Shown piece by piece: positions 20,665-56,475 of a DNA stretch of 64,000 bases. Positions within the stretch are counted from its first letter, which is position 1; every line of letters starts with the position of its first letter. A model generated the notes under the pieces. It worked only from the letters and a program-made list of their open reading frames with translations, searched no databases and was not told where the DNA came from. A program made the translations under genes and the position numbers. Origin of the DNA: Deltaproteobacteria bacterium (GTDB lineage: Bacteria > Myxococcota_A > UBA9042); the NCBI GenBank assembly GCA_016875335.1, contig VGRO01000005.1, positions 11,295 to 75,294 of the forward strand, given 5' to 3'.

Positions 20665-20672
20665 TGGTGGGC

Positions 20673-34848: not shown

Positions 34849-34855
34849 CAGCGCC

Positions 34856-39650: not shown

Positions 39651-40562
39651 ATGTCGCTCGCAGTGCGCTCGCCACCCTTTTCTTTCGACCTGACCACGGC
39701 CGCACAACTGCGCGCCGCGCTGCGCACATCGCTCGATGGCGCGGAGTTCTTCGGCGGCCCGCTGGTGCTCGTCGGGCGCGAAGTGGACATCCCGGCGTGG
39801 TCGTGGCTGGGCCAGGTGTGCCTGCTGCGCAGCGACTGGCTGCCGGCGGTGGCCGCGGCCATGCACGACGCGCTGCACCACGGCACCGAGCTGGAACGAC
39901 AGGCGTTGGTCGACGCGCTGGCCAACGAACCCGCGACCGTGCGCCTGCTGCCGTGGACCGCGGGCTGGGCGCGCATGTTCGGCGACGTGACCGGCACGCG
40001 GTCGGGCACCGGCTGGGGCGGGTCGAGCACCGCGCCGCGCCTGGACCACGTGCTCGCCAACCACGAACGCTACGCTGAGGCGTGGGTGCGGCAGCCCCAC
40101 GATGTCCTGTGGAGATTGCGCCCGGTGGCCCTGGCGACGCGCGACCACCTGCGGAACCTGCTGGAGCGTACGGCGCGGACCGGCCGCGGGCCCGAAACGC
40201 CGCTCGGCGACCACGGCTGGGATTGGCTGGCGCAGCAGGTGGCATACGTGCCGTGGATCGCCGACGCGCTAGGCGAACTGCTGCCATGGGCCCTGCACGG
40301 CGAACCAGCCCACGGCTACGCCGCGCTGGACTATTTGCTGATGGGCCAGGATGCGTGGCGCTGGCGCGACCTGGTGCGGCAGTGGCGGTCGCATCCGCCG
40401 AATTGGGCTGCCACCCCCACCAAGGTCAAACCCAAGGGCTGGGGCCGCAAGGCGCGTCAGACCCAGGACAATTCGCTCAAGACCTGGGCCGACCTGGCGC
40501 TGCGCTTCGAGACCCTGCATGGCCGGCAGGCGCCGCCAGTGATGGATTTGCCGTTGCCATAG
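39651..40562 (+). CDS. Hypothetical Trp-rich protein
   Basis: ORF 39651..40562 has balanced composition with many Trp/His/Asp. The overlapping antisense ORFs are Arg/Ala-rich. No recognisable domain. Confidence 0.4.
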   Translation: MSLAVRSPPFSFDLTTAAQLRAALRTSLDGAEFFGGPLVLVGREVDIPAWSWLGQVCLLRSDWLPAVAAAMHDALHHGTELERQALVDALANEPATVRLLPWTAGWARMFGDVTGTRSGTGWGGSSTAPRLDHVLANHERYAEAWVRQPHDVLWRLRPVALATRDHLRNLLERTARTGRGPETPLGDHGWDWLAQQVAYVPWIADALGELLPWALHGEPAHGYAALDYLLMGQDAWRWRDLVRQWRSHPPNWAATPTKVKPKGWGRKARQTQDNSLKTWADLALRFETLHGRQAPPVMDLPLP

Positions 40563-40766
40563 GGTCAATCGGTGATTTTCGCGGTCACTTGTTGGCCCAG
40601 TGCCTCGCCTTGCGCCAGTTGCACCTTCAGCAGCAGACAGGCCGCCTTGCTGCCCCGGCACGTGCCGAACCGACCGGCTGGTTTCGGACGCGTCCCATAG
40701 CCGCCGGTCGGTTCCTGCGCTATCGTCGCGCGACCTCGCGGCCAGGCGCCGCTGTGGAGTCCTTCG

Positions 40767-42890
40767 ATGGCCGATGCACCCCTGCCAGCGCTCGGTCCGC
40801 GGCAACGTGCCGCCGCGCACGTGCTCTTGCGCCTCGCCCACGACCGCTGGGTACCGCCGCTTCCAACCGGCGAGGACCGCCCTGAACTCGCGCGCGTCGC
40901 CGCCACTCGCGCGCTCCTCGACGCTCCCGATCCCGACGACTCGCCGCTGGAGGCTGCGCGGCAGGCACTGGAAGCGGCAGCCGCTGTGCCCGGCGAACCC
41001 GCCGACCGCCTCGACCTGGCGGCTGATTTGCTGGGTCTGGCGCCACCGGCCCGGCTCGCCCTGGGACTGTGTGCTTGCATCCAACTCGACCCGCGCATCG
41101 GGCAGATGGCGCGGGCCGTGGCGGCGCGCTTGGGCTACGCCGACGGCAGCGACCCTGCCCTGCTCGACGCCGCACTGGAACCCGCAGGGCTCGGACCGGC
41201 GTGGACGCGGACGCTTTTGCACGAAGGGGGACAACTGCGGCGCATGGGCGTACTGACCCTGCACGACGGCAAGGTCGGGCTCGGCATCGCCTTGCAAGCC
41301 TTCGTGCAGACTGCGCTTCCTGCCCACAGCCCGCTGCGGCCGTTCGAGGTGGCGCCCACCGTGCCCGCGGGCCTGGTCGGGGCGCTCGTGGCGGCGCGCA
41401 GGGGCTGGATCGAGGTGCTCGGCCGCGCGCTGCACGCCGATCGGCCTTTGCTGTTGTCGGGCATGGCCGGGTTTGCCGGCGCGACGCTGGTGCAGGCGGC
41501 CGTCGGCGTTGGCGGGCCACAGGTGCGCAGCATCGACCTTGGCGCCATCTTTGACTTCGAGCGCGGCTTGCCGACGCCGCTGCTGGGCGAATTGCACGCC
41601 GAGGTGCGCTTGAGCGCGGCGCCCTGGGCCCTGCACGGCGCCGAACGCCTGGAAAAGACCGTCCGCGACCATCCGGCGGCCTTGCGGCGGCTGGTGGCGG
41701 CCCTGGTCGCCATGGGCCGGCCGATGGTCCTGTTGCACGCGGGTCCGCTTTCGCCCGACGTGGCGGCCCGGCTCGCCCAAGAGGCCGGTCTGCCCAACTT
41801 TGAACTGCCGCCTTTGCCGGTCGACGCGCGCAAGGCGCTGCTGCATGCGTCGCTGGTGGCGCAGGGCGTTGCCGAAACCACGGCCGAGTCTCTGGCCGAG
41901 GCGTGCCGGAACGCCAACCTCGAAGTCGAGTCGGTGGCCGCGGCGGTGGCCTTCGCGAGCCAGAAGGCCGTGCAGCGTGCCGCGAAACTGGCTGCCGGTG
42001 GCAAGGCGCCTGCCGAGGCCGTGCCGACGGTCGCTGAACTGCGCAGCGCGTGCAGCGCCACCATGACCAGCCGCTTGCGCCAATACGGGTCGCGCGTCGA
42101 GACGGCCTCGGACTGGGGTGACCTGGTGCTCGCCGCCGAGCCCCTGGGCCAAGTCAAAGACCTCGCACGGTTTGCCCGAGTGCGCGACCGCCTGTTCGAC
42201 GACTACGGTTTCGGCGACAAAATCGGTTACGGCAGGGCGCTGTCGGCGATGTTCTCGGGCCCGAGCGGCACCGGCAAGACCATGGTGGCCGGCCTCATCG
42301 CCAAGGACCTCGGCGTCGAGCTGTACCGGGTGGACCTGTCGCGGGTCGTCAGCAAGTACATCGGCGAAACCGAAGAACGACTTGGCGCGCTCTTTAGCGA
42401 GGCGAGCCTGGTCGGCGCGGCGCTGCTTTTCGACGAGGCCGATTCGCTTTTCGGCCAGCGCACCGAAATCAAGAGCAGCAACGACCGCTACGCCAACCTC
42501 GAGGTCAACTACCTCTTGCAGCGCCTGGAGGAGTTCGACGGCGTGGTCATCCTGACCACCAACTTCGCGACCTCCATCGACGCGGCCTTCCTGCGTCGCC
42601 TGCGCTTTCGCGTGCAGTTCCCCATGCCGTCGCCCAAGGAACGCGAGCGCATGTGGGAGGTCATGTTGCCGCCGCGCCTGCCGCAAGACGACGACGGCAT
42701 CGACTTTGAGTGGATGGGCGAGAGCTTTGACCTGACAGGTGGGCACATCCGCAATGCGGTATTGCGCGCGGGCATGTTCGCCGCTGACCTCGACCGGCCG
42801 CTGAGCATGCGGATGCTCTACGACGCGGCGGCGGCGGAGTATCGGGAGCTCGGCAAGCTGGCGCCGGGGTATCCGTTTGACGACGACTGA
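40767..42890 (+). CDS. AAA+ family ATPase with ~440-aa N-terminal extension
   Basis: C-terminal classical AAA module: GPSGTGKTMVAGLIAKDLGVELYRVDLSRVVSKYIGETEERLGALF (Walker A plus the second region of homology), LLFDEADSLFGQR (Walker B), and VVILTTNFATSIDAAFLRR (sensor / Arg-finger region). Confidence 0.75.
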   Translation: MADAPLPALGPRQRAAAHVLLRLAHDRWVPPLPTGEDRPELARVAATRALLDAPDPDDSPLEAARQALEAAAAVPGEPADRLDLAADLLGLAPPARLALGLCACIQLDPRIGQMARAVAARLGYADGSDPALLDAALEPAGLGPAWTRTLLHEGGQLRRMGVLTLHDGKVGLGIALQAFVQTALPAHSPLRPFEVAPTVPAGLVGALVAARRGWIEVLGRALHADRPLLLSGMAGFAGATLVQAAVGVGGPQVRSIDLGAIFDFERGLPTPLLGELHAEVRLSAAPWALHGAERLEKTVRDHPAALRRLVAALVAMGRPMVLLHAGPLSPDVAARLAQEAGLPNFELPPLPVDARKALLHASLVAQGVAETTAESLAEACRNANLEVESVAAAVAFASQKAVQRAAKLAAGGKAPAEAVPTVAELRSACSATMTSRLRQYGSRVETASDWGDLVLAAEPLGQVKDLARFARVRDRLFDDYGFGDKIGYGRALSAMFSGPSGTGKTMVAGLIAKDLGVELYRVDLSRVVSKYIGETEERLGALFSEASLVGAALLFDEADSLFGQRTEIKSSNDRYANLEVNYLLQRLEEFDGVVILTTNFATSIDAAFLRRLRFRVQFPMPSPKERERMWEVMLPPRLPQDDDGIDFEWMGESFDLTGGHIRNAVLRAGMFAADLDRPLSMRMLYDAAAAEYRELGKLAPGYPFDDD

Positions 42891-43236: not shown

Positions 43237-44898
43237 CTACCCCCGAAACACCCAAACCTCGCGCCCCTCGACCACCGGCCGCGTGTCCTCGACCACCATC
43301 CGCTCGCCCCACTCGCGTGCCTCGGCCTCCGGTCGCCGGTCAAAGATCAGCAGCGACGCCGACTCGCAAGGCACCCGCCGCAGGTAGGCCCCGACCTGAG
43401 CAAGACCCTCGTCGCGCGGATCGCCTTTCTTGGGGTGCCAGACTTTGAGCTCGAAAAGGTGGCGCTCAAAGCGCACCGGGTAGCGCGGCACCTTGCCTTC
43501 GTCGTCGGGCAGCGGCCAGCGAATCAAGACGTCCATGCGCCGGCTGCCAGCGGCGTATTCGCGGTCCACCCAGCCACCGCCGTTGACGATGCGCTGCAAG
43601 AAGCCCATGCACACCAACTGGACCGCCACCTCGCGGTAGCCCTCGGCCTGCACGAAGCCCTCGGCGTGCTCGCGCCAGAACGCCAGGAATGCTTCGCGCA
43701 GGCCGTCGATGTCCAGGCGGCCGTCGTCGCGGTGCCAGCGGCCGCTAACGACCTGCAATTGGTGTTGGTAGCGACCAGCAAGGCAGCGCGGGATGACCTC
43801 CTTGTAGATCGCGTTGGCGACGCGGGCCGGCTGGTCGGTCACGAGGCCAATGTCCCGGCAATAGCGGTCGTCTTCCCAATCGGCGTTGGTGAGGTCGCTG
43901 CCCGCCAGAATCGGCTCCAACACCTGCCGCACGCGGTCCTCTCGCAGCCGCGCCATCAGCGAGTCGAAGTGCGTGCCCCACTGCACGATGAGGTTGTCTT
44001 TGGCGATGTCGATGTGGGCGACGTCGACGGTTCCGGTCCACCCTTGCTTGGCGACGACGTCGTGGGCCAGTGCGTTGACCAGGTGCGGTTGGCCGCCGGT
44101 CAGCTCCGCCACGCGGTCGAGGGCGGCATCGGTGAAGGCCTGGCCCGTTTCAGCGGTGTGCTGGCCGTACAGCGCGGCGATTTCAGCGCGGCTGAAGGAG
44201 GCGAGGGTAATCGACTCGCGCTTGACGTTGAACGGGCTCGAAGAGGCCGCCCGATCCTGGCCACCCGAGGCGATCTTGTAGTCGCGGACGTCGCGCATGC
44301 CGAAGATGCAGACGGAGTGGGGAAAGCCCTTGGGGCGTTCGGCGTAGCCCTTGCGCATTTGGCTGAGCACGGACACCAGGCCGTCGTTTTCCAAGCAATC
44401 GATCTCGTCGAGGAACAGGACGAGGGGGCGCGCGCACGCCTGCGACCACGCGCGCAGAAAGCGATACAGGCGGCTGCGCGGTGTGGCAGGGGCGTCTGGC
44501 GCTTCGGCGGGAGGTTGCTCCGCCAGCGGCAGTTGGTCGCTCGCCAGTTGCAGCGAGCCGACGACCAGTTCGATGACCTCGCCAACGCTTTGGACTGCGC
44601 GGGCCTCCTCGACCGTGCAATAGACCACGGCATACCGCCCGTCCGCGCGCAGCTTGTCCGCCAGCGCCAGCACCGTCGTGGTCTTGCCCGACTGCCGCGG
44701 GGCGTGCAGCACAAAGTAGTAGCCGTCGTGGACCAAACCCTCGACGGTCGGCGGCAGGCGGTCGAGCGGCGGCAGCGTGTAGTGCTGCGCGACGCGGTTG
44801 ACGTGAGCGGTGTTGAACTGGCGGGCCAAGGCGCACGCAGGGCCGCGGTCAGGCGGCGCAGGCGGGCAGCGTACCACGAACGCGGCGCGGGGCGGCAA
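43237..44898 (-). CDS. AAA-ATPase-like (PF09820-type) protein with C-terminal PD-(D/E)XK-like region
   Basis: Walker A HAPRQSGKTT and Walker B LVLFLDEIDCLEN. The C-terminal ...VLIRWPLPDDEGKVPRYPVRFERHLFELKVWHPKKGD is consistent with a PD-(D/E)XK (E..D..ELK) motif. The start is uncertain: the ORF begins at 44898, but homology to the 28771 fragment starts near LARQFNTAH (about 44830). Confidence 0.7.
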   Translation of the reverse strand: MPPRAAFVVRCPPAPPDRGPACALARQFNTAHVNRVAQHYTLPPLDRLPPTVEGLVHDGYYFVLHAPRQSGKTTTVLALADKLRADGRYAVVYCTVEEARAVQSVGEVIELVVGSLQLASDQLPLAEQPPAEAPDAPATPRSRLYRFLRAWSQACARPLVLFLDEIDCLENDGLVSVLSQMRKGYAERPKGFPHSVCIFGMRDVRDYKIASGGQDRAASSSPFNVKRESITLASFSRAEIAALYGQHTAETGQAFTDAALDRVAELTGGQPHLVNALAHDVVAKQGWTGTVDVAHIDIAKDNLIVQWGTHFDSLMARLREDRVRQVLEPILAGSDLTNADWEDDRYCRDIGLVTDQPARVANAIYKEVIPRCLAGRYQHQLQVVSGRWHRDDGRLDIDGLREAFLAFWREHAEGFVQAEGYREVAVQLVCMGFLQRIVNGGGWVDREYAAGSRRMDVLIRWPLPDDEGKVPRYPVRFERHLFELKVWHPKKGDPRDEGLAQVGAYLRRVPCESASLLIFDRRPEAEAREWGERMVVEDTRPVVEGREVWVFRG

Positions 44899-45191
44899 TC
44901 AAGACGGGGCCGCCGCCCACGCGCGCGCCTGAATCGGTCACCGTGGCATCGGTCGTCGCCGCGTCCGTGCCGGCCGGCAGTGGCGAGGTGCATGCGCCAA
45001 GGATCGCGCAGCTTGCGCCGGTAGCGCGGGCGAACACTCGGGCACGGATTCGCATGGAGGACCCCAGCGTGCAGGTTTGGACGCGTTGGCGGAGCGAGGG
45101 CGAAGCCGCGCGGGATGTCAAACCCCTTGCGCCCGCCTCGATGTCACCGCACCATCACGTTGCCGGGCGTCCACGCGCCCAAAGAGTGTCC

Positions 45192-45638
45192 ATGCGTCCC
45201 GTCCTGCCGTTGTCCGTCCTCGCGCTTGCTGCCGCCCTGCCCGTCACCGCCGCCGACGCGCCCGCTGCCCGCGTGGTTGTCGCGCGCGAATCGGCGCAGA
45301 CCTACCCTATCCTCGGCGGCAAAGGCGAGGCGACCCTGCTGCTCAACGCCGAAACGGGCAGCAAGGAGGCCGCGCTGTCGGTCCTGACGCTGGCCCCTGG
45401 CGCCGAGGTGCCGCAACACGTGCACGAAGGCAGCGCGGAGTTGCTGTACATCGAGAGCGGCACCTGTGAACTGGTGGTCGGCGGCGTCAAGGTCCAGGCC
45501 GGGCCGGGCAGCGCCGTGCGCATTCCGGCGGGTGTGCCGCACAGCGCACGGGTGACCTCGGCGGTGCAGTCGCTGCGGGCGGTGCAGGTGTACGTGGGGC
45601 CGGGGCCGGAGCAGAGGTTTCGCGCGCCCGCCAAGTAG
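45192..45638 (+). CDS. Secreted single-domain cupin protein
   Basis: ATG at 45192. MRPVLPLSVLALAAALPVTAADA is a signal peptide. Cupin motifs: PGAEVPQHVHEGSAELLYIESG ... GSAVRIPAGVPHSARV. Confidence 0.6.
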   Translation: MRPVLPLSVLALAAALPVTAADAPAARVVVARESAQTYPILGGKGEATLLLNAETGSKEAALSVLTLAPGAEVPQHVHEGSAELLYIESGTCELVVGGVKVQAGPGSAVRIPAGVPHSARVTSAVQSLRAVQVYVGPGPEQRFRAPAK

Positions 45639-45700
45639 CGCCAGTCGGGTTGCTGGTGGATTGCGGGCAATGTTGACAATCCCGGCCGCCCGGCCCAAGT

Positions 45701-48169
45701 TTGGCCGTCGGGTGGTCCTGTCGACCATCGCTGGCGGGCGTCGAGGGCAGCGTGGGCAAAGCGGTCGATGTCGGTGAACTGAAAGCCAGGGCGGCCGCCG
45801 TGCGACGGTCGCTGGTTGACCCGGTCATTGCGCCGTGGCAGACCGCCGGAACGACAGCGCTCTTCCAGGTTCGCCTGGACCGCGCGGCCAATCGCCTGGC
45901 GGAGGCGGCGGCGTACCAGCACCTCGCGACGGGCTCGCTGCCAGCAGAACCGTTGATCCGAGAACTGGTTGGACAGTGGCACGCGGTAGGCTTCGATGAC
46001 GCCTTCGAGCAGGCGCGGGTCTTCGAGGAGCGGGCGTTTGCCGGGTCGGTCGAAGACGAGTGGCGCGCGCGGGTCGAGGCCGAGTTTGGTTTCGTGGACA
46101 TCCGCGGGATGCAGACCGGGGCGGCGCTGCGGGTGCCGCTCGACCGACTGTGGGTGGGCTTGCGGGCCGAGAGGGAGCCCGAGGACGAAAGCCGCGAACC
46201 GCACTTGGCCTGGGTGCGGTCCAGGAGCCGCGGGGACGAGCAGTTCATTCCAGTGACGGCCATCGCGCGGGAGAACCCGGTCGTCGCGTTCGTCGCTGGC
46301 CCAGGATCCGGCAAGAGCACGCTGGTCGCGCGGTTGGCCGTGGACGCCGCGCGCAACGCCAATGGGCCGGTGCCGTTCGTCGTGCCCGGACACCGCTGGC
46401 AGGGCGATGCCGTGACCGCGGTGACGCTGGCCAACGCGGCTGGCTACAATGCGGCACAGACGGCGCTGCTGGTGGACTGCTGGAACAGCGGCCGCGCTCT
46501 GGTCATCGTCGATGCGGTCGACGAGTGTTCTTCGCCATCCACGCTTGTGGCCGCCTTGGACGCGGCGGCGGCTGCGCTTGGCGGGACCGGCAACCGCTTG
46601 GTTGTCACCTCCCGGCCGCTTCCCGCGTGGGCGACGACGAAGAGACTGCGCAAGCACACGTGGACTCTTGCGGCCTTCGAGCGGTCCGAGCAAGAGGCGT
46701 ACGTGGACCAGTGGACGCAGGCGGTGGAAATTGCGCTGCACAACGTACCGGATCCGAAGGCGCAGCAGGCCGAGCGACCGTTGAAGTTGGCGGCCAACGC
46801 GGCCACCAAACTCAAACGGGCGCTCCGTGCCAACCGGGCCCTGGGCGAGTTGGCCGGCACGCCGCTGCTTATTTTGTGCATGTGCGCGCTGCATCGCTTC
46901 ATGGGCGAGCGTCTGCCCGAACGGCGGGTGGCGTTGTACGAGGCCGTCGTCAACTTGCTGCTTTTTGAGTGGGACAAGTCCAAGCTGGCATCGGACGCAT
47001 TGCTGGGCCAGCTCGACCGCGAGCAGCGCTGTGGGCTGATGGCACACCTGGCGCTCGCGATGCTCGATGGCGGCGCGCGCGAGTGGCAGGACGCCGAGAT
47101 CCTGGCCGCGTTGGAGCACGCTCAGGTCGCGAAAGACCAAAGGTGGGGCCAGGCCGAGTTGCTGACCGCGCTCGGCGAGGTGCGCAACCGCGGCGGCCTG
47201 TTGGTAGAGGCAGCGCCGGGTCGGTGGCGGTTCGTGCACCTGGCCCTACAGGAGTACCTGGCGGCGCGGGCGCTTGCCGAACTGTGGGACCTGGGGGCCA
47301 TCCTGGCACGCTGGCGCAAGGCGCCGGAGCGCTGGCGCGAGGTGGTCGTTTTGTATGCGGGGTTGCCGGGCGTCGACGCTGGCACGTTGGTGGATGCGGT
47401 GTCGGAAGAAGCGCACAACCAGCCGCGATTGGAAAGTTCGCAATTCTCCCGGTACAAGTTAGCGGCAGAGTGCATCGGATCCGCGGCGCTGCCACCGCCG
47501 GGCCGTATCGGCAGCCTATACGATGCCAGCGTCGCCCGTCTGACGATACTAGGGGCGGCCCATGTCATGCGCGTCGGCGGCATCGCTGAGTTCGCCCAGC
47601 TCCGCTTTGCATCGGCACTCGATGCGGCGATCGAAAGAGGGCAGGCGGCCGAGATCGAGGACGCGCTGTTTGCGCTTTCCGAGTTGGGCGCATCGGGAGG
47701 CGTGGGCGCGATTGCCGCGCGGCTTCCCAAATTGGCCCAGCCCGAATTTCGGCCCGCCCATACCCCAATAACTGCGGCCGATCCCAAGGGCGGAAGCGAA
47801 CTTGGCCTTTTCGCTTCGGCGCTGTTGGTGGCCTCCTATGCCAGCGGCCGGTGGCCTGGCGACGCCGAAACGCGCAACGTGGCGACGGTTGCGGCCGCAG
47901 TCGCGCAGCACCCAGACCTGCGACGTCCACTGGAAGATCACTGGCAGCGCATTCGCGGCGGCGTCGCAAGGCTCGACCCCCACAGCGCAGCGGAATACGG
48001 CGGCTTCCTCGAATCCGTGCTCCGCCAATCCGGCGACGACGGCGACCGCGAACGCCTTGACCGCCTCGTCGCCGGCCTGCCCACCACGGCCGCGGTTGGC
48101 AACGCGCGTCCCGAAAAGCCGCCGGCAGCGGCCTCTACGCCTGCAACACCCGGTCGATCGCGGCGTTGA
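45701..48169 (+). CDS. NACHT-domain STAND NTPase
   Basis: Walker A VAFVAGPGSGKSTLVARLA; Walker B ALVIVDAVDE; GTPLLILCMCAL (GxP-like); and downstream an α-helical Leu/Ala-rich region. N-terminal ~180 aa and C-terminal ~300 aa regions are unassigned. Confidence 0.7.
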   Translation: MAVGWSCRPSLAGVEGSVGKAVDVGELKARAAAVRRSLVDPVIAPWQTAGTTALFQVRLDRAANRLAEAAAYQHLATGSLPAEPLIRELVGQWHAVGFDDAFEQARVFEERAFAGSVEDEWRARVEAEFGFVDIRGMQTGAALRVPLDRLWVGLRAEREPEDESREPHLAWVRSRSRGDEQFIPVTAIARENPVVAFVAGPGSGKSTLVARLAVDAARNANGPVPFVVPGHRWQGDAVTAVTLANAAGYNAAQTALLVDCWNSGRALVIVDAVDECSSPSTLVAALDAAAAALGGTGNRLVVTSRPLPAWATTKRLRKHTWTLAAFERSEQEAYVDQWTQAVEIALHNVPDPKAQQAERPLKLAANAATKLKRALRANRALGELAGTPLLILCMCALHRFMGERLPERRVALYEAVVNLLLFEWDKSKLASDALLGQLDREQRCGLMAHLALAMLDGGAREWQDAEILAALEHAQVAKDQRWGQAELLTALGEVRNRGGLLVEAAPGRWRFVHLALQEYLAARALAELWDLGAILARWRKAPERWREVVVLYAGLPGVDAGTLVDAVSEEAHNQPRLESSQFSRYKLAAECIGSAALPPPGRIGSLYDASVARLTILGAAHVMRVGGIAEFAQLRFASALDAAIERGQAAEIEDALFALSELGASGGVGAIAARLPKLAQPEFRPAHTPITAADPKGGSELGLFASALLVASYASGRWPGDAETRNVATVAAAVAQHPDLRRPLEDHWQRIRGGVARLDPHSAAEYGGFLESVLRQSGDDGDRERLDRLVAGLPTTAAVGNARPEKPPAAASTPATPGRSRR

Positions 48170-48911
48170 CGGCGGCGCTGTAGGGCTCGGCCTCCGTCGC
48201 CCGAAAAGCCGTCGCCACCACGGCGCGCACGGCCGCCCGCAACGCCGGGTCTGCCCCTTCCAGCGCCTCAAGCAACGCTTTCACGCGCGCCGTGGTCGCC
48301 GCGATTGCCGCCTCTCGGGCACGGGTCAATCCCTCGCGGCTCAGGTCCATGTCGCGCACGGTAGCCTCGGCCTTTGCGTCGCCCTGCAGTGCCGCGATGC
48401 CGCCGCCGTCGTCGAACTGAAAGTGGGCGGCGGGGTTGGCGTCCTCATGCGGCGCTACGTACCCGCCTTGCGGCCACTTGTTGCTCTTGCTGTGGTTGCA
48501 CAGGCTGCAACTGGGCAGGTAGTTGCCCCAAGCGTAGGCCAAGGTGGGGAACAGCGACTTGGGCCGGAAGTGCTCGACCTGCCAGAACTGGTCTGCGAAC
48601 GCGGGCGACTCGCAGTACACGCATTTGCCCTTGGCGTTGTCCATCATTTTGGCCTTGCGGGCGAGGATCGCGTTGTCTTTTGCGCCCCACAACGGCGGGA
48701 ACTCCTTGGTCGCCGAGTTGCCCTTGGTCGGCAGCGTGCCTTGGTCGTGGTCGGCAAAGGTCTCCCCGGCAGCGACAGCGCCACTGCGGACGCCCGCTTC
48801 GTAGGCCTTTGCGGCTGTCTCGTACGCGGCATAGCCGCCCTTGAACTTTTTGCAGGCCTTCAACTTGTCTTTCCAGCCAACGGGGTCCGATACCACGCGA
48901 AACGCCATCAT
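48135..48911 (-). CDS. ptuB: HNH endonuclease, Septu PtuB-like (TIGR02646-like)
   Basis: 258 aa. Motifs CVYCESP...QVEHFRPKS...GNYLPSCSLCNHSKSNKWP form an HNH His-Me finger. The ATGATG start overlaps the TGA of the upstream ATPase gene (ATGA). Confidence 0.65.
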   Translation of the reverse strand: MMAFRVVSDPVGWKDKLKACKKFKGGYAAYETAAKAYEAGVRSGAVAAGETFADHDQGTLPTKGNSATKEFPPLWGAKDNAILARKAKMMDNAKGKCVYCESPAFADQFWQVEHFRPKSLFPTLAYAWGNYLPSCSLCNHSKSNKWPQGGYVAPHEDANPAAHFQFDDGGGIAALQGDAKAEATVRDMDLSREGLTRAREAAIAATTARVKALLEALEGADPALRAAVRAVVATAFRATEAEPYSAAVNAAIDRVLQA

Positions 48912-50242
48912 TGCGCACCCACCTTCGCGAGCGCCGCCAGCAATTCGCGGATGACGGCCTGCGTCGCCCCTTCGACGCGATCTCGACCGTCGGCTTGACC
49001 CTGGCGCATGGCCTCGCGGGCGCGGATGCCCTGGAGCTTGTCGAGCAATTCGCGAAGCCGGGCCCGCTGCTTCTCTGACCTGGCTGCTTTGGCGACGAGC
49101 GCGTCGAGTTCCCTTTCGAGCTCCGCCACCGCGTGGGAATAGGCGCTGTCGAGGCCGAACAATTCCGTTTCGACCAACGCCGATCCGACCGCCGCGTGGT
49201 GCAGCTTGGCCAGGGTAGCTGGCGCCAACCGCTCGACGCGCGCGGCTTTTTCGGCTTGGGGCGGCACCATGCGGTACACCGCGCACCCGGGCCCCTCGCC
49301 CACCGCGATATCCACGGCCGCCAGCGCCACCTGCGCCGAATGCGTCGTCACGACCAGTTGGGCACCGGGGAACGCGGTGAGCAACTGATCCAAAACCGCG
49401 TGCTGCCACCGCGGGTGCAGGTGCAAGTCCACTTCGTCGATGAGCAGCGTCAATTGGTCACCCGACCACCCATAGCTGATGACGCCCGTCGCCAGCCGAC
49501 CCAACGCATCCGCGACCAGGGCCAGCACCGCCTTGTAGCCATCCGAAAGTTCGCCAAACCGCCGTGTACTGCCGTCGTCGAAGTGCACGTCCAAGCCGCG
49601 TTGGTCGGCCGCGACCGTCGTCTGGTCAAAGCCCTGGACGACCTTGCGGAGCGATTGGTGCAGGGCGTCAAGGCGCTGCTGCGCCGCCGGATCGCCTTCG
49701 CGGCCCCTGGCATGCAGGCTCAGCAGCATGCTGGTCATGTTGCGCGTCGGGCCGTCAGAGGGCGCGAAAACACTGGCTGCGCGCCCGCCAAATGCAACCG
49801 AGTTGCTAGCGTACGACGATGGCGACACCAGTTCGCCGGCTTCCGACTTCGCAGGCGGCAAGGCGATCCCACGATACCTCCCATAGGCCAACAGCCATGG
49901 CTGCTCTGGCAGGCGATCCCGACCGGCACCTTGCGCTTGCAGCCACCCGGCCGCCCTGGCCCCCGCGCGATGCAGCACAATCTCGCCGCCGCCGCCCCCC
50001 GCGCGTCCGGGGAACTGCTGCAGGTCCCCTTCCTCTGGATCCTCGTCCTCGGACCGCCAGGCCAGCGCCGCGATGGCCTCGACCACGGTGGACTTGCCCG
50101 ACCCGTTTTCACCCACGAACACGGTCAGGCGGCGATGCAATTCGATCGCGGCATGGTCGAAGCAACGGACGTTGTGCAGTTCCAGTCGCGACAACTGCCA
50201 AGCCGCGGCCTTGTCGTGCGGGGTCGCATTCGGTTTTGGCAT
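48908..50242 (-). CDS. ptuA: ABC/OLD-like AAA_15/21 ATPase, Septu PtuA-like
   Basis: ATG at 50242 (MPKPNATPHD). The N-terminus LSRLELHNVRCFDHAAIELHRRLTVFVGENGSGKSTVVEAIAAL is a RecF/SbcC-like Walker A. LTLLIDEVDLHLHP is Walker B, and LVVTTHS is the H-loop. The stop overlaps the ptuB-like start. Confidence 0.7.
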   Translation of the reverse strand: MPKPNATPHDKAAAWQLSRLELHNVRCFDHAAIELHRRLTVFVGENGSGKSTVVEAIAALAWRSEDEDPEEGDLQQFPGRAGGGGGEIVLHRAGARAAGWLQAQGAGRDRLPEQPWLLAYGRYRGIALPPAKSEAGELVSPSSYASNSVAFGGRAASVFAPSDGPTRNMTSMLLSLHARGREGDPAAQQRLDALHQSLRKVVQGFDQTTVAADQRGLDVHFDDGSTRRFGELSDGYKAVLALVADALGRLATGVISYGWSGDQLTLLIDEVDLHLHPRWQHAVLDQLLTAFPGAQLVVTTHSAQVALAAVDIAVGEGPGCAVYRMVPPQAEKAARVERLAPATLAKLHHAAVGSALVETELFGLDSAYSHAVAELERELDALVAKAARSEKQRARLRELLDKLQGIRAREAMRQGQADGRDRVEGATQAVIRELLAALAKVGAQ

Positions 50243-50340
50243 GGTCAGGTCCGTTGCGGGCCGTCGGGCCCGGCCCGATGGTGGCATGCCAGCCCAAGCC
50301 GGTCACCTTTGGCTGGCACGACCCTTGCGGAAGCGCCCTA

Positions 50341-50497
50341 GCTGGGCACGCATGCCAGTCTGAAGCCTTGCCGAAGCGACCTCGGGGGGCACCGCGGCAA
50401 GTCTCGACCCTTGCCCAGCGGCCGGTATTGGCGCGCACGCCAGTCTCGACCGTTGCCCCGGCGCCCAACTTGGGCGCGCACGCCAGTCTCGACCCTT
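50341..50497. repeat. Imperfect ~40-bp direct repeats upstream of the ptuA-like gene
   Basis: TTGGCGCGCACGCCAGTCTCGACCGTTGC (50427-50455) and TTGGGCGCGCACGCCAGTCTCGACCCTTGC (50469-50497) are near-identical. Degenerate copies: CTGGGCACGCATGCCAGTCTGAAGCCTTGC (50341-50370) and CAAGTCTCGACCCTTGCC (50397-50414). Confidence 0.55.
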
Positions 50498-50498
50498 G

Positions 50499-52841
50499 CT
50501 ACGCGGGCGGCACCGGCACCGCTGGCCCGTCTGCAGCCGGCGCGCGCTCCACCCGCCGCGAGCCGAGCGCCGGGGCGTGGTCGCCAAAGTCGTCGCCCCA
50601 CTGGTAATACGCGGCCTTGCGCACGCTCTTGTAGCCCTGGACCAGCAGCGTCCACAGCCGGTCGCGGATGTCGGCGGCGCGGTCGGCGTCGGTCTCGGGC
50701 TTGCCGCCCGGCTTGTAGCCCGCCGGTCGCAACACCGCCAACAGTTGGGTGCCGACCGCGGCGGCCTCGTCGACTTCGGCCACCTCGACCGGGTGCTTGC
50801 CGGCGACGACGGCCGCGTGGGCGCGGAAGAGGCCGGCCAGCCGCACACAGTCGGTCGCGGAGTCGATAGCCCCGGTGCCGCGCTCGATGTCCCGCACTTC
50901 GGCCGCGGGCAAGAGGCCCTTGTCGGCCAGCGAGCGGGCGGCATTGAGCAGCATGGCGCGCAACTCTGCAGAACGCTTGCGCCAGCGGGCAATCTCGCCG
51001 GGCGACGCAGCATCGCGGTCCACGCGCGCCGATGCGTAGACGACGGCCTGGGCCAGCGCGGGCAGGTTGGGCATGGCGACCCAGTCCAGCGCGGGCAGCA
51101 CGGGTTGCAGTTCCGGCTGGAGCGCCAGCGCGGCCGCGACCCCGCGTTGGACATTGCCGTGGGCGATTTCTGGGTCGGCGCGCATGGGCTGGATGTCGCG
51201 CAGGGCCATGGCCTGGGGAAGGAACTGCTGGTAGGCGGCTTCGGCGTCGGGCTGGGCGGGGGTGTCGTGCATGGTGGGCTCCGTTGGGTTGTGGCCTTGG
51301 GCCGGCCGTTTGTCGATGGCGCTGGCGGGATTCTGGCGGTCGGCGCTGGGCATGGTCACGGCGTGCGGGTGTTCTGTCAAGTGCCTTGGAGCTGGGACAA
51401 CGGGTTCTGCGGGCGGCACGGGGGCGTCGATGTCGGTGTCGAGAATGCGCTGGAAAGCGTCGCGGATTGTTGCAGCCTCGGGCATTTGCAGGTGCTTGGC
51501 GTCGGCGTAGGCGCGTCGGAGGAGCGATTCGATTTCCGGGCGATCGTCGGGCTGGCCGCGCTTGTTTAGAACAAGGGCAGTATTGATGCAGGCGTCAACG
51601 AGTGCGGGCTTGTTGCCCAGACGCTCGTAGCGCGGCAGGACGTGCTCGCGTTGGATTCGCAAGGCCTCGTCCAATTGGCCGCGGGTTTGGTGCACGTCGG
51701 CGATCCTTCCGAGTGTGAGCGCCGCCGAGTGGTCGTCACCGAGCCGCTCGAATACCGGCAGCGCGTGCTCGCGCAAGATGAGCAGTGCCTCGTCGAGTTG
51801 GCCGAGGGTGTGAAGCACGCCAGCGATCCACGCGCGCGTCAGGGCCGTCAAGGGCACATCACCAAGCCGCTCAAAGGTTGGCAGCACCTGCTCGCGCGCG
51901 ATGCGCAGAGCTTCGTCGGGTTGGCCGAGGTCCAAGACGACGCGGGCAATATTGAGTTGCGTAGCCGCTGCTGATCGCTCGTCGCCCAGTCGCTCAAGTA
52001 CCGGCAGCGCCCGCTCGCGCAAGAGGCGCAGCGCCTCGTCGAATTGGCCGCGTTGCCGGAGCACGGAGGCGATATTTCGCCATGCCAATGATTCGGATCG
52101 CACGTCGCCCAGTCGCTCATACGCCGGCAGTTCCTCTTGACGCCGAATACGCAAAGCCTCGTCGAGATCGCCCTGGACGGCCAGCGCGGCAGCCACTTCT
52201 CCAAGGGTGACGGCCTTGTCGTAGTCCGCGCCGATCCGCTCGTAGATCGGAACGGCCTCCTTGAGCCGCAGGCGGATCGCGCCGGCCAAGTCTCCGGCAT
52301 CCGCAAGCGTATCCGCCTCGCGCCGCAGCGCCGTGGCAACGTCGTCGGCGTCTTCCGTTGCCAGTGCAACGTAGCTGCGCACCGACCACAGGTCTGGCGC
52401 TTCCCGTGCGAGCAGGGGGAACATCCACGCGGGCAGCACCAGCACCAGCGGCAGGCCGAGGTCGCTGGCGATGAGGTTGCGCGCTTCATTCATCCGCCGC
52501 AGCCAGTTGCGCCAGGCGTCGATGTCGCGCGGGTCGGCCGCCGAGGCGTCGATGCCGGCAACAGCGGGCGATGGCGACTGCTGGCGGACAACCAGCAGCG
52601 GCTTCAACAGCCCGTCGATGAGTTGTCCAACCGTCGGCGCGGCCCACAGTTTTCGTTCTTCGGGCTCGTGCCAGAGGATGGTCAAACCTGCGGGCAGCAC
52701 GGACTCGAGTTCTCCGCGAAACGCATGGCCGGCGTGCGGCCCGGCAACCTCAATGACGTGGCATTGAAACCTGTCGCCGCCCAATTCCAGCGCGGAGACC
52801 AGGCGAGCGGCCGCTTGGGCAGGTGGGACGCCAGCGTTCAC
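50499..52841 (-). CDS. TPR-repeat protein (about 8 tandem repeats) with unassigned N- and C-terminal domains
   Basis: GTG at 52841 overlaps the TGA of the upstream NTPase gene (GTGA). The central region has about 8 repeats of ...DEALRI.RE..LP.YERLGD.... The ORF-track Met at 52904 would give a 66-nt overlap instead. Confidence 0.6.
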   Translation of the reverse strand: MNAGVPPAQAAARLVSALELGGDRFQCHVIEVAGPHAGHAFRGELESVLPAGLTILWHEPEERKLWAAPTVGQLIDGLLKPLLVVRQQSPSPAVAGIDASAADPRDIDAWRNWLRRMNEARNLIASDLGLPLVLVLPAWMFPLLAREAPDLWSVRSYVALATEDADDVATALRREADTLADAGDLAGAIRLRLKEAVPIYERIGADYDKAVTLGEVAAALAVQGDLDEALRIRRQEELPAYERLGDVRSESLAWRNIASVLRQRGQFDEALRLLRERALPVLERLGDERSAAATQLNIARVVLDLGQPDEALRIAREQVLPTFERLGDVPLTALTRAWIAGVLHTLGQLDEALLILREHALPVFERLGDDHSAALTLGRIADVHQTRGQLDEALRIQREHVLPRYERLGNKPALVDACINTALVLNKRGQPDDRPEIESLLRRAYADAKHLQMPEAATIRDAFQRILDTDIDAPVPPAEPVVPAPRHLTEHPHAVTMPSADRQNPASAIDKRPAQGHNPTEPTMHDTPAQPDAEAAYQQFLPQAMALRDIQPMRADPEIAHGNVQRGVAAALALQPELQPVLPALDWVAMPNLPALAQAVVYASARVDRDAASPGEIARWRKRSAELRAMLLNAARSLADKGLLPAAEVRDIERGTGAIDSATDCVRLAGLFRAHAAVVAGKHPVEVAEVDEAAAVGTQLLAVLRPAGYKPGGKPETDADRAADIRDRLWTLLVQGYKSVRKAAYYQWGDDFGDHAPALGSRRVERAPAADGPAVPVPPA

Positions 52842-54151
52842 GGTCCGACTGCCGGCGCGGGTTCGTGCAACAGCCCGCGCACGGCCGGGTGCACATCGAA
52901 CCACGGTTGGGCGTTGTGGTAGGCGAGGATGACCTGGGCGCGCACGAGATGGTCGAGGGCGGACAACTGGGCGCGGTCCACACGCACCTGCCGTTCGCGC
53001 GCAACTTCGCGCAACATCGGCAGGTCGTCGCGCGCGACCATGCGCTGCAGCTGGTCGCGGAATTCCGCGGCAAGTCGCTCGCGGGCCTGGGCGTCGAGCG
53101 GTACGTCTCCCACAGCGTGGACCGCATTTTGGAGCAGGCGCACCAGCTCCCGGGGATAGCCGCCCGACAGTCGAATCAGGTCGTCGACGGCCGCGGACCA
53201 GTCATCGCCGAAAAGTGCCTGCAGACCCGCCTCGTCGATGCGCTGGCGGACGATCGTTCGCGCAGCCTCGCGGCCAGCCGGCAGCAGCCGCGGCGGGTCC
53301 GCGAGGTCCAAGCGGTCGTGCAGCTTGATCATCGGCACCACGTCGATCGGGCGCCGCATGCGCCACATCAGCGCCATGGGCACCGTATAGACGGCGTGCA
53401 CGCCCAGGGCGAGGTCGTCGGCCTGCTGCACGAACACGCGCTCGGCGCTGTCGAGCACCTGCAGCCAAGTCGTCGAAATCCCGCGGAGCTTCTCCAACGA
53501 ATCGACGATGACCAATAGCCCCGCCCAGCCCGCGGCTTGCGCCTGGGCCTGCAGCGCGCCCATGTCCTTGCGCACATGGTCGACGAGCGCCCGCACCTGG
53601 GAGGCGGCATTGTTGCGAAACCGCTCGCGCAAATCGGGCCGCTGCTTCAGTTCCAGTACAGCCTCGGCCACGCCGGCCTTCGCAGACAGCTTGGTCAGTT
53701 CGACGTCCGTCTGGGTCAGCCAGGTCCACAAGCGCTGGGCGACGCCGGGCGTTCCCGGGTTGCCGCCGCACTCCTTGGCGACGGCGGCCTCTGTTGCGAT
53801 GACGATGCCGCAGAGCAGGTCGGGCACGTCAATCGGTGCGTCGAGGTCGAAGTAATCGTCGGCCTCCACCACGACGGGCAGCAGCTTGGCGGTACGGTCC
53901 TCGCGCAAGTGTTGGGCAAGGCGGCGCAGGTCGGTCGACTTGCCGCACCCCGGCAGGCCGGTCACGAAACGGCAGACGGGTTGATCCGCAAGCAGGAAGT
54001 GGTCGGCGAGCCGTTGCGACCACACGACGCCGCGCGGCTTCTCGCCGGCGACTTCAATGGCGTCGATGTCCACGTTGCGCGGGTCGTCCGGTGCCAGCAC
54101 CTCGTTGGGGATACACCGGTTGTAGTATTTGCGGCGGTCGGCGAAAAGCAT
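52838..54151 (-). CDS. P-loop NTPase (STAND/AAA-like)
   Basis: Start chosen at MLFADRRKYYNRCIP (54151; the ORF track extends to 54211). Walker A RFVTGLPGCGKSTDL; Walker B LLVIVDSLEKL. α-helical C-terminal half. Confidence 0.6.
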   Translation of the reverse strand: MLFADRRKYYNRCIPNEVLAPDDPRNVDIDAIEVAGEKPRGVVWSQRLADHFLLADQPVCRFVTGLPGCGKSTDLRRLAQHLREDRTAKLLPVVVEADDYFDLDAPIDVPDLLCGIVIATEAAVAKECGGNPGTPGVAQRLWTWLTQTDVELTKLSAKAGVAEAVLELKQRPDLRERFRNNAASQVRALVDHVRKDMGALQAQAQAAGWAGLLVIVDSLEKLRGISTTWLQVLDSAERVFVQQADDLALGVHAVYTVPMALMWRMRRPIDVVPMIKLHDRLDLADPPRLLPAGREAARTIVRQRIDEAGLQALFGDDWSAAVDDLIRLSGGYPRELVRLLQNAVHAVGDVPLDAQARERLAAEFRDQLQRMVARDDLPMLREVARERQVRVDRAQLSALDHLVRAQVILAYHNAQPWFDVHPAVRGLLHEPAPAVGP

Positions 54152-54303
54152 GCGGTACCTGCGCGGTTGCGGTCGCGTGGCGCAGTGTAGGCGAGGTTGC
54201 GATGGCCGCAAACATCCGCACGCGACCTGCCTTTGGGCTGGGCGGCTCGGGCGGCGGCTTGGCTCGGGGGCCCCGGGTTCTCAGATCAAGACGACGGCGG
54301 CTT

Positions 54304-56475
54304 TCAAAACACCGCCACCCCCTGCACCACCACGCCGCTCAGCTTGCCGTCGGCCCCGGCGTGCGGCGCCGCCATCACCGCGTCGAACGGCCATCGGACC
54401 CAGCCGGGCAATTTCCAAGCGCCGCCGCCGCTTCCCTGGCGCGCCGCTTTGACCGGCTTGTCGTCGGAAATCGCCACGCGCGCCAAGAGGCCTCCCAGCG
54501 CCAGCCCGACCGCCGACCCGCCGAGGTTGGCCTTGATGATGGCATCGCTGTCGGTGGTGAACATGGCGGTGAACAACGCCGCCAGGCCCGCGCCACACAG
54601 GCCGCCAAAGTTGGCGCCGGCCAGCACCCGCGGGTCGGCATCGACCACGGGCGACATCAACAGCGCCGTGGTGGCCAAGCCAAGGTCGGTGAGCAGCAGC
54701 ATGCGCCCGGCGGATGCCGTGTCGGAGGTGTCGTTTTCGAGCGCCAGGGTCCAACCCGCGAACCAGGCGCCCCACACCGCGCCGCTGCTGCCCATGGTCG
54801 TCTGCCAATTGTTCCACTGGGTCTGCTGGGACAGGGCCACACCGCCCAGGCCGAACAGCGAACCGCCGACCAGCGTCATGCCGAGCATCAGGTTGCTGCG
54901 GTCGCTGCTCCACTGGTGGTCGTTGGCCAGCACGCCAAGCCACGCGCCGTGCCACAAGCCGAGCAACGTCGAGATGGGCACGATAGCGCGGTCGCCGCCG
55001 CGGTACTCGGTGACGTCGCTCAGCCACACGCCGGCGAGCATCCCCGCCGCGCCGGTCGCAAGGTGCACCAGCTTGCCGTTGTCGTTGTCCTGGTTGGCCA
55101 AGAGCGCAATGCCGCCGCCGAGCGCCTTGCCGTAGCTCGCCATCAGCGCCACCTCGAAGACGTTGCCGACGGTCATCGCCGAATGCTGCGCAATGGCCAT
55201 GCCGCCGAGCAAGCCGAGTCCGCCGCCCAGGCCCATGCCACCGTACTCGGGCCGGTCGGGGCGAAAGACCGAGGCCAGAAAGCCGCCGTAGTACGCGCCT
55301 TCAGCCGCACCGTAGGCCGTCAGCGCGACGTCGCCGCTGGAGAAGCGCATGGCTGGCGCGGTCAAGACGCCGATGCCCAAACCGGCGAGGCTGCCGGCCA
55401 GGAGCGTCGCGTAGCCGGGCCGCTGGTCCTCTTGAGGGGTGGCCAACGCCAACGCGCCCGCCGTGGCCACCGCAGCCGAAACGCCGACGACGTCGACCGT
55501 CACCACGTCCTGGCTGGACAGGTTCAGGGCATCGGCCCCGAGCACCGCCAAACCCAACCCCGCGAGCTCGCCCGCCAGGGACAAGCCGGCGCGGATGCGC
55601 TCGACGCCCGACTCGTGTTCGCTGATGCGCTCGCCGGTGTTGGGGTTGACAGGTCTGTGGATGATGGCGTCGGCCGACAGCCACCCGGCCCACGAGCCCC
55701 AGCTCAGCGCGCTCAGGTAATAGTGCTGCCGCGCAGTGCTGATTTGGCGGCCAAAGATGTAGCCGGACCCGGCGCCGACCACCGAGCCGGCGACCCAGCC
55801 GATGGCTCCGGCCGATCGTGTCCCGGCGAAATCGCCGACCGATGACAACGCCCAGCCACCAAAAAAGCCGCCACCCAAGGTCGACAACACCGCCGAGCCG
55901 CCCAACTGCGGCAGCCCGCGGTCGGTCAGCACTTGCGGGTGGTCGCGGCCCAGCGTTTCGACCGCCGCCTTGCGCGTTTCCATGTCGCCGTCCAGGTTCG
56001 CGGCGATGCGGTAGAGGGCGTCTACCCCTTCTTTGCGGACGTGGCGGCTCAAGGCGTCCAGCGCCCCGCGCTGCGGCCGCAAGTTCTCGACGCCGGTGGC
56101 GATGTCGACCAGCGCCTGCACGGCCGACGGCTCGGCGACCTGCTGCAGCAGCAGGATGGCGGCTTCGCGCACGGCCGGGTTGTTGTCGTGCAGGGCGGCA
56201 TAGCGCAGGGCGGCCACGGCGCGCGGGTCCGCCGACGCGGCGACCTGTTTCCAGCGTTCCGGTCGGTGTTCGGCCGGAGCGGCCAAGGCGTCGAGCAGCG
56301 GCACGAGCAGCGCGCTGTCGGGCCGGGCGACCGCGGGCGGTGCCTCGACCGGCGTGGCGGCAACCGCTGGGGCGACGGGAACCGCAGGCGCTGCCGGAAT
56401 TTCGTCGGCCCGGGCCGGGACGCAGAGGCAAGCGCACGCGGCGACCACCGTCAGCAGTGCAAAGTGGGTGCGCAT
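54304..56475 (-). CDS. Secreted HEAT-repeat domain fused to a Gly-rich polytopic membrane domain
   Basis: Signal peptide MRTHFALLTVVAACACLCVPARA. The N-terminal ~150 aa are HEAT/PBS-lyase-like (AVAALRYAALHDNNPAVREAAILLL). They are followed by ~550 aa with many Gly/Ala/Leu-rich predicted TM helices (GWLSADAI..., GLGLAVLGADAL...). Confidence 0.55.
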   Translation of the reverse strand: MRTHFALLTVVAACACLCVPARADEIPAAPAVPVAPAVAATPVEAPPAVARPDSALLVPLLDALAAPAEHRPERWKQVAASADPRAVAALRYAALHDNNPAVREAAILLLQQVAEPSAVQALVDIATGVENLRPQRGALDALSRHVRKEGVDALYRIAANLDGDMETRKAAVETLGRDHPQVLTDRGLPQLGGSAVLSTLGGGFFGGWALSSVGDFAGTRSAGAIGWVAGSVVGAGSGYIFGRQISTARQHYYLSALSWGSWAGWLSADAIIHRPVNPNTGERISEHESGVERIRAGLSLAGELAGLGLAVLGADALNLSSQDVVTVDVVGVSAAVATAGALALATPQEDQRPGYATLLAGSLAGLGIGVLTAPAMRFSSGDVALTAYGAAEGAYYGGFLASVFRPDRPEYGGMGLGGGLGLLGGMAIAQHSAMTVGNVFEVALMASYGKALGGGIALLANQDNDNGKLVHLATGAAGMLAGVWLSDVTEYRGGDRAIVPISTLLGLWHGAWLGVLANDHQWSSDRSNLMLGMTLVGGSLFGLGGVALSQQTQWNNWQTTMGSSGAVWGAWFAGWTLALENDTSDTASAGRMLLLTDLGLATTALLMSPVVDADPRVLAGANFGGLCGAGLAALFTAMFTTDSDAIIKANLGGSAVGLALGGLLARVAISDDKPVKAARQGSGGGAWKLPGWVRWPFDAVMAAPHAGADGKLSGVVVQGVAVF

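Follow-up and report, generated by a model that had tools for sequence, protein, structure and literature searches.

Septu is a two-gene defense system in which an ATP-bound oligomer of PtuA restrains the HNH nuclease PtuB until infection, upon which nucleic acid is cleaved (PMC12819146, PMC13096335). In its stand-alone form, PtuAB assembles into an ATP-bound hexameric complex and is kept from acting until infection occurs (PMC12819146); phage T6 is restricted through the cutting of tRNA-Tyr by Septu (PMC13096335), and the nicking of DNA has also been reported (PMC12819146, PMC13096335). Other described proteins and systems that come close to parts of the locus considered here are the bNACHT defense proteins, Avs and other bacterial NLR-like proteins, the NTP-dependent conflict systems of Kaur, Burroughs, Iyer and Aravind (eLife 2020/2021), and proteins that combine PF09820 with PF08011. 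Among prokaryotic STAND NTPases at large, a 2026 survey classed 198 of 589 clades as defense-associated and the remaining 391 as not (PMC13581612), such that a NACHT domain alone is not proof of a role in defense. Against this background, we analyzed a gene cluster within a 64,000-nucleotide (nt) stretch of contig VGRO01000005.1 (here termed the window), which derives from a metagenome-assembled genome (MAG) of a deltaproteobacterium. An earlier note, drawn from the letters alone, had described this cluster as a defense island made up of four gene sets: an ATPase–nuclease fusion (here, gA), a NACHT NTPase (gC), a Septu-like pair (ptuA and ptuB), and an NTPase coupled to a tetratricopeptide-repeat (TPR) protein (gG and gF). 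The most probable interpretation, in our assessment, is that the stretch is a mosaic of four independent ATPase-centered modules and not one system; three of the modules occupy a single accessory segment, and one of these three, the gG–gF pair, represents a large family that has not been named.

Septu is the only established defense system in the cluster (25 kb away is a locus with a DrmD-like SNF2 helicase). The ptuA product matches the PADLOC model for PtuA (PDLC00278, E = 1.3e-45) as well as Pfam AAA_21 (E = 2.5e-23) and AAA_15, and the ptuB product matches the PADLOC model for PtuB (PDLC00337, E = 1.3e-28) and Pfam HNH, its match to TIGR02646 (E = 4e-8) falling under the family cutoff. As in known Septu systems, the two genes are adjacent and codirectional with a 4-nt overlap (ATGA, 48908–48911), the Walker A and B motifs of the ATPase are intact, and the translation of ptuB contains CVYC...EHFRP...CSLCNH, with both the cysteine pairs and the His-Asn-His residues preserved. 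The two-gene Septu arrangement put forward in the earlier note is thereby borne out, and the ATGA overlap on which it drew, like the GTGA overlap between gG and gF, can be read directly in the sequence. Scores for PtuA and PtuB against the NCBIfam equivalog models, whose cutoffs are built on the PtuAB of retron Ec78, are 131.6 (cutoff, 500) and 54.8 (cutoff, 150), so far under the cutoffs that the pair is a divergent, nonretron member. The block contains no reverse transcriptase gene and no match to an Rfam RNA, which places the pair with the stand-alone type. Retron-linked Septu (type I-A, as in Ec78/Eco7) was considered and rejected for these same reasons, and we confidently assign the two predicted proteins to a divergent, stand-alone Septu. 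A further difference from described Septu loci is an unusual tandem repeat upstream of ptuA: between the stop codon of gF and the start of ptuA are about 4.2 copies of a 43-nt unit with the core GGTCGAGACTGGCGTGCGCGCC, a 22-mer that occurs only at this site in the window (0.01 matches expected by chance).

The Septu genes belong to a segment that is absent from a relative. A scan of a genome collection with gH, the gene that flanks the block on the right, recovered a sister MAG (SXRM01000201.1) with 74 to 83% nucleotide identity over the right flank. In this genome, gH (8152–10383) is followed after 15 nt by a convergent homolog of the cupin gene gB (10399–10848; 83% identical). The flanks match those of the window with 78 to 83% nucleotide identity. 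Because gB directly adjoins gH in the sister, the segment that holds gC, ptuB, ptuA, gF, and gG in the window is a presence/absence polymorphism, based on one informative sister genome; the comparison with relatives that the earlier note had suggested thus finds gC through gG missing between the same flanks. The missing segment is 8.7 kb long, is bounded exactly by the two stop codons of gB and gH, and contains three modules: the stand-alone Septu, the orphan NACHT gene gC, and the coupled genes gG and gF. Synteny ends to the left of gB, where the sister has DabA/DabB carbon-transport genes and the window has gA and further genes; gA therefore lies outside the insertion. The single 11-kb cluster proposed earlier accordingly holds for the gC–gG block and not for gA, since the conserved cupin gene, which is not part of any defense module, stands between them. 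A compositionally defined island was also considered and dropped, as the block does not stand out in G+C content, third-position G+C (GC3), codon usage, or tetranucleotide profile. Beyond its DabA/DabB genes, the sister carries a DUF3644 protein (18030–19352), and the two genomes are completely different to the left of gB.

A Septu-bearing defense island in a myxobacteria-like MAG is unremarkable by itself, and the value of this locus lies in the family to which gG and its partner belong. The gG protein has a Walker A motif (GLPGCGKST), a Walker B motif (VIVDSLEKL), an invariant GGYPR, and a winged helix at its C-terminus. Its full-length homologs form at least 170 clusters at 38 to 45% identity, all annotated as “hypothetical,” most of them from Myxococcota (Sorangium, Enhygromyxa, Minicystis, and Kofleriaceae) plus Latescibacterota; no homologs were found in phage genomes. 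An AlphaFold2 model built from 41 homologs (predicted local distance difference test [pLDDT] score, 89) consists of a P-loop core, a helical lid, and a C-terminal winged helix, with GGYPR located where STAND and ORC proteins have their lid motif. The best solved structures in a Foldseek search are Cdc6, ORC subunits, CED-4, Apaf-1, NLRP3, NOD2, TnsC, and RdrA (E values of 5e-5 to 1e-3), Cdc6/ORC being matched equally with CED-4, Apaf-1, NLRP3, and NOD2 at E values of 5e-5 to 5e-4; TM scores are low (0.3 to 0.4), which reflects differing domain arrangements. The family is thus a large one without a name in Pfam, NCBIfam, or PADLOC; its conservation extends along the full length of the protein, and it combines what is modeled as an apoptosome/NLR-type ATPase fold with sensor repeats encoded in a second, coupled gene. 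In Sorangium sp. So ce1182 (locus 8702–11404), two tandem gG paralogs (38 to 43% identity to the family) precede a single 780-amino-acid (aa) partner gene.

We surveyed the partners of gG at 6 loci from assemblies and 77 from metagenomes. At these loci, the gene downstream of the gG homolog starts within a few bases of the gG stop codon, often with an overlap of 4 or 8 nt. At 56 of 66 metagenome loci with a gG gene that is complete to its stop codon, the downstream open reading frame (ORF) encodes a conserved N-terminal domain roughly 150 residues long, and several of the ten exceptions run off the end of the contig. This N-domain has alternating strands and helices, an “hhhhDAS” stretch, and the motif W..LF.RLNE.RN...PL.L.LP...APDFWSIRS, with N118, R121, and D150 invariant; it has no sequence match in the PDB, and in appearance it resembles an ATPase core from which the P-loop has been lost. 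In gF itself, the N-domain (52841–52332) is followed by TPR repeats (52331–51432), a proline-rich linker, and a C-domain of 257 codons (51272–50499). The repeats match TPR_12 (E = 1e-21), in agreement with the TPR protein described in the earlier note, although six to seven repeats of 41 aa are found and not eight. What follows the N-domain differs from partner to partner: by Pfam, TPR arrays of very different lengths occur in 29 of 51 partners, TPR-S in 2, and the conflict-system adaptor EAD1 in 2. At one metagenome locus (L041, 1531–3759), the partner is a fusion of the N-domain to NACHT, and in Acaryochloris and Nostoc plasmids an 1,830-residue WD40 protein with the same N-domain motif follows remote (25% identical) gG homologs. 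No enzymatic effector is present among the 25 most-matched of the 60 Pfam families in these 51 partners. As judged from these sequences, gG–gF belongs to a large and unnamed family in which an ATPase is followed by a usually translationally coupled partner that joins a constant N-domain to a variable C-terminal part, and this variable part (TPR, WD40, EAD1, or NACHT) would represent diversification of the sort typical of conflict systems.

We infer that gG–gF acts as a STAND-type switch split over two polypeptides. In such an arrangement, gG would supply the nucleotide-binding, lid, and winged-helix modules, gF would dock on gG via its conserved N-domain (with its P-loop-less ATPase-core appearance and its invariant N, R, and D), the ligand would be sensed by the variable repeats of gF, and binding of the ligand would lead to ATP-dependent oligomerization of the pair. 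The likeness to Avs and other bacterial NLR-like proteins resides in the predicted nucleotide-binding, lid, and winged-helix fold of gG, with CED-4, Apaf-1, NLRP3, and NOD2 among its best structural matches, in the highly variable, sensor-like TPR or WD40 arrays of its partners, and in the genuine NACHT domain of gC. Unlike in Avs, the ATPase and the repeats of gG–gF are separate, coupled proteins (in the window and at 56 other loci) with an additional N-domain that is conserved; neither protein yielded an effector domain, and neither the Avs nor the bNACHT models match them. The likeness to the NTP-dependent conflict systems (eLife 2020/2021) lies in an NTPase-centered module with a constant and variable partner, some with EAD1 or TPR-S, in a family that favors Myxococcota and filamentous cyanobacteria, and in CHAT proteases near remote relatives. 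However, in the parts of that work considered here, the gG module was not recognizable as any of the cores presented (MoxR–vWA ternary systems, the GAP1 GTPase, NucA–peptidase, and nSTAND pairs), and it has no nSTAND Pfam match. Tentatively, the gG–partner pair might be an undescribed and widespread two-gene immune sensor (in Myxococcota, Latescibacterota, Acidobacteriota, and Cyanobacteria) whose ATPase and repeat array are separate and are joined via a P-loop-less adaptor able to carry EAD1 or NACHT, a proposal that we place on the doubtful side. If it is right, the pair would be a modular version of bacterial NLR-like immunity with exchangeable sensors, STAND sensors could be two-component machines whose sensors can be swapped, and the known immune repertoire would gain a family from poorly sampled, socially living bacteria.

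The genomic contexts of gG homologs bear on whether the modules of the window belong together. No homologs of any other tested window gene are found at other gG loci, nor is there synteny with the window, so the gG–partner pair sits in unrelated contexts. The closest homolog (64% identity) adjoins AbiEii, an AAA_11/12 helicase, and an AAA_14/DUF4143 gene; plasmid copies lie near CHAT proteases, a NACHT gene, HicAB and RelE toxin–antitoxin genes, integrases, and an IS6 element; and many other neighborhoods look metabolic. Because neither ptuAB nor other window genes accompany gG homologs elsewhere, we regard the modules as independent, and a link between Septu and gG–gF was rejected on the count of about 90 other gG-family loci that lack ptuA and ptuB. 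It could still be proposed that the four genes gG, gF, ptuA, and ptuB make up a single system, a variant of Septu in which a STAND-like sensor controls the nuclease: they are contiguous on the same strand, the sole gap among them is the repeat-bearing spacer of about 250 nt at 50243–50498, and no terminator-like site above chance separates gF from ptuA. We consider this highly improbable, since ptuA/ptuB occur at 0 of those roughly 90 loci, Septu is a self-sufficient two-gene system (PMC12819146), and the closest gG homolog has a different neighborhood.

The NACHT gene gC is the one module for which an exception to this independence is worth noting. Its product matches the Pfam NACHT model (PF05729) with 30.8 bits against a gathering cutoff of 26.7, and the same model is carried by nearly all of the homologs recovered in a homolog search, so the earlier designation of gC as a NACHT STAND NTPase stands. 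The motifs are GPGSGKST (Walker A) and IVDAVDE (Walker B). The closest relatives come from Sorangium and Byssovorax and share only about 34% identity with gC; in remoter ones, NACHT is combined with FGE-sulfatase, HEAT, or LRR sensors, and some of these proteins also carry a TIR or caspase domain. The N-terminus of about 190 aa has no Pfam match at E values of up to 10, and the helical C-terminus matches nothing. With the bNACHT defense proteins, gC thus shares the NACHT NTPase module, but it has no recognizable effector domain in the Pfam search and no match to the bNACHT models of PADLOC, in which it draws just a weak generic match to mad8. By its sequence, gC is a true but orphan NACHT ATPase lacking a recognizable effector domain.

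Two observations from the gG family, the N-domain–NACHT fusion at L041 and a NACHT gene (397–2358 of its locus) 3.5 kb from the gG homolog on Acaryochloris plasmid pREB2, hint at a functional link of the gG module with NACHT ATPases such as gC, and the association, although weak, is recurrent. Taken further, they could mean that gC acts together with gG–gF as a multi-NTPase system, the more so as gC resides in the same insertion. That gC does so is unlikely in our view: the idea draws on only 3 of about 90 loci, NACHT genes are frequent in the phyla concerned, and gC is on the opposite strand, with Septu in between.

The fourth module, gA, stands apart from the insertion. It matches Pfam AAA_35 with 33 bits (cutoff, 27), along with AAA_16 and AAA_22, and an AlphaFold2 model from 42 homologs (pLDDT, 87) places its AAA+ part with Cdc6/ORC, the archaeal Walker-type ATPase PAB2304, and clamp-loader (RFC) subunits. 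The last 160 residues are modeled as alpha-alpha-beta-beta-beta-alpha-beta, in which D433, E460, and K462 are invariant or nearly so among homologs; PDDEXK_9 (PF08011) is matched by 7 of 16 homolog C-domains (best E = 6e-5) and NucS_C by 3, the C-domain of gA itself having no Pfam match. No match to PF09820 is seen in gA at E ≤ 0.01, and this domain is never present in its family. The architecture given by the earlier note, an ATPase followed by a PD-(D/E)XK-like module, is therefore probably right, as PF08011 occurs in the homologs' C-domains together with the D/ExK residues, and the name of the ATPase family is wrong. In relation to described PF09820–PF08011 proteins, gA would share the two-part layout (an ORC-like AAA+ ATPase, then a predicted PDDEXK_9-type nuclease fold) but differs in that its ATPase is of the AAA_35/AAA_16/AAA_22 kind and that its C-domain lies under Pfam detection, with PF08011 seen in homologs only. 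Its family numbers more than 2,000 clusters of about 525 aa, at 45 to 50% identity across Myxococcota and Actinomycetota, and orthologs in related MAGs (68 to 71% identity) are solitary genes in nonsyntenic neighborhoods, among metabolic and secreted-protein genes. We predict that gA is a single-gene module, an ORC-like AAA+ ATPase with a PDDEXK_9-like nuclease fold, which may operate as an ATP-gated nuclease, and that its family makes a candidate single-gene ATPase–nuclease.

A defense role is plausible for each of gA, gC, and gG–gF. The three resemble conflict systems in architecture, variability, and mobility, and they do so without effectors, family assignments, or neighborhood statistics. 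A number of results speak against the mosaic interpretation that we favor. With respect to mobility, the sister MAG is a different species (about 80% nucleotide identity), such that a deletion there is indistinguishable from an insertion here; neither flanking direct or inverted repeats nor a target-site duplication was found at 45639/54303; the 64-kb window has no tRNA, nor, as the earlier note had observed, an integrase or transposase; and composition is not strongly anomalous, with a GC3 of 0.80 to 0.85 in the block versus 0.82 to 0.89 in flanking genes, a comparison that the earlier note had suggested as a check. With respect to function, gG, gF, and gC yielded no enzymatic effector domain; gA has no match in PADLOC or NCBIfam, and gG reaches threshold with no family in Pfam, NCBIfam, or PADLOC; the view that the N-domain of gF is homologous to an ATPase core lacks statistical support (hhalign probability of 3% against the gG profile); and PADLOC matches among 215 proteins neighboring gG at 33 loci, pooled and not counted per locus, are sporadic and partly generic (Ser/Thr kinases, MkoA-like helicases, and two ABC ATPases), with no demonstrated enrichment in defense genes.

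A rival account is that only Septu is a defense system and that gC, gG–gF, and gA are ordinary signaling or regulatory ATPases, expanded in large myxobacterial genomes and placed beside Septu by chance. Most STAND clades are not classed as defense-associated (PMC13581612), effector domains were not found in gC or gG–gF, most neighborhoods of gG homologs look metabolic, the modeled winged helix of gG could bind DNA as in ORC/Cdc6, and orthologs of gA lie among metabolic and secreted-protein genes. We nevertheless judge this account rather unlikely, given that all three of the other modules are positionally variable and not syntenic, that the variable region of gG partners diversifies in a sensor-like manner and includes the conflict adaptor EAD1, that remote gG homologs reside on plasmids with CHAT, NACHT, and toxin–antitoxin genes, and that Septu lies in the same accessory insertion as gC, gG, and gF. 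The mosaic of four independent modules thus remains our preferred interpretation. Of the defense island proposed earlier, one bona fide system within a genuine accessory segment stands, and a defense role for the other modules is unproven; the attribution of all four gene sets to defense families goes too far, as Septu alone is established, gA and gG are without PADLOC or NCBIfam assignments, and gC has a generic one only.

The tail of gF (residues 524 to 780) has an origin of its own. It belongs to a separate family of 1,612 representatives of about 260 aa, all free-standing except gF, with no match in Pfam or the PDB. In alignments with the free-standing homologs, Met524 stands where these proteins have their start methionine, GGAG precedes this internal ATG, and GC3 is 0.89 in the tail versus 0.75 to 0.78 in the rest of gF; from sequence, the tail looks like a downstream gene joined in frame through a missing stop codon. 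Because the family is absent from every other gG locus, the module does not regularly include the C-domain as a third gene. A seeming second example of the fusion (P0337) proved to be the same sequence as the window and was discarded, and the neighborhood of one free-standing homolog was uninformative.

Genes were called by GC3 in the 64-kb window, whose raw ORF lists are mostly noise because of its G+C content of about 69%. The resulting set (Table 1) matches the genes called independently for this DNA in a database, whose copy of the sequence shows 1 mismatch in 11,853 bases, and the genes and coordinates of the earlier note are accordingly real. The contig of the source MAG is 75,860 bp long, and among its proteins (locus tags FJ100_), MBM4342131 corresponds to gA, MBM4342133 to gC, and MBM4342137 to gG. 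No signal above chance was found for promoters or terminators.

Table 1. Features of the cluster and its flanks, in window coordinates
Feature	Position	Strand	Basis
Flanking AAA+ ATPase, CDC48-like	40767–42890	+	Gene call
gA, predicted ORC/Cdc6-like AAA+ ATPase with C-terminal PDDEXK_9-like nuclease fold	43237–44829	-	Pfam, AlphaFold2 model, homologs
gB, cupin_2 protein, conserved flank gene	45192–45638	+	Pfam Cupin_2, E = 5e-17
Accessory insertion between the stop codons of convergent gB and gH	45639–54303		Missing from SXRM01000201.1
gC, orphan NACHT STAND NTPase	45752–48169	+	Pfam NACHT
ptuB, assigned Septu HNH nuclease	48135–48911	-	PADLOC, Pfam HNH
ptuA, assigned Septu ABC/SMC-type ATPase	48908–50242	-	PADLOC, Pfam AAA_15/AAA_21
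43-nt tandem repeat in the gF–ptuA spacer, ~4.2 copies	50321–50499		Repeat search
gF, partner protein of gG	50499–52841	-	N-domain conservation, TPR matches
gG, predicted ORC/Cdc6-STAND-like ATPase	52838–54151	-	Homologs, AlphaFold2 model, Foldseek
gH, HEAT-repeat protein with multiple membrane spans (flank)	54304–56475	-	Gene call

Elsewhere in the window, the SNF2 helicase mentioned above (17992–21177, minus strand) matches PADLOC DrmD over its full length (E = 1.6e-220), and two giant sacsin/GHKL-like proteins, which match TmtA weakly, are encoded upstream of it in the same orientation. This block (17992–28498) has a lower G+C content (0.62 to 0.67) than the rest of the window. Since DrmA, DrmB, DrmC, and a methylase are not seen there, it is not a canonical DISARM system, and it may be a second, unusual defense locus.

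To the left of gA, at 39651–42890, the CDC48-like AAA+ ATPase has an unassigned N-terminus of 480 aa and is preceded by a 303-aa protein without a family match. The PADLOC IetA match of this ATPase spans the AAA core only, and no IetS protease gene is seen adjoining it; for these two reasons, the locus is not an Ietas system. Farther to the left, at 34766–38632, lies a very large, cysteine-rich and repeat-rich ORF of 1,288 aa in its longest reading, and related cysteine-rich giants (Dicty_CTDC, MopE-like) adjoin gA orthologs in other MAGs.

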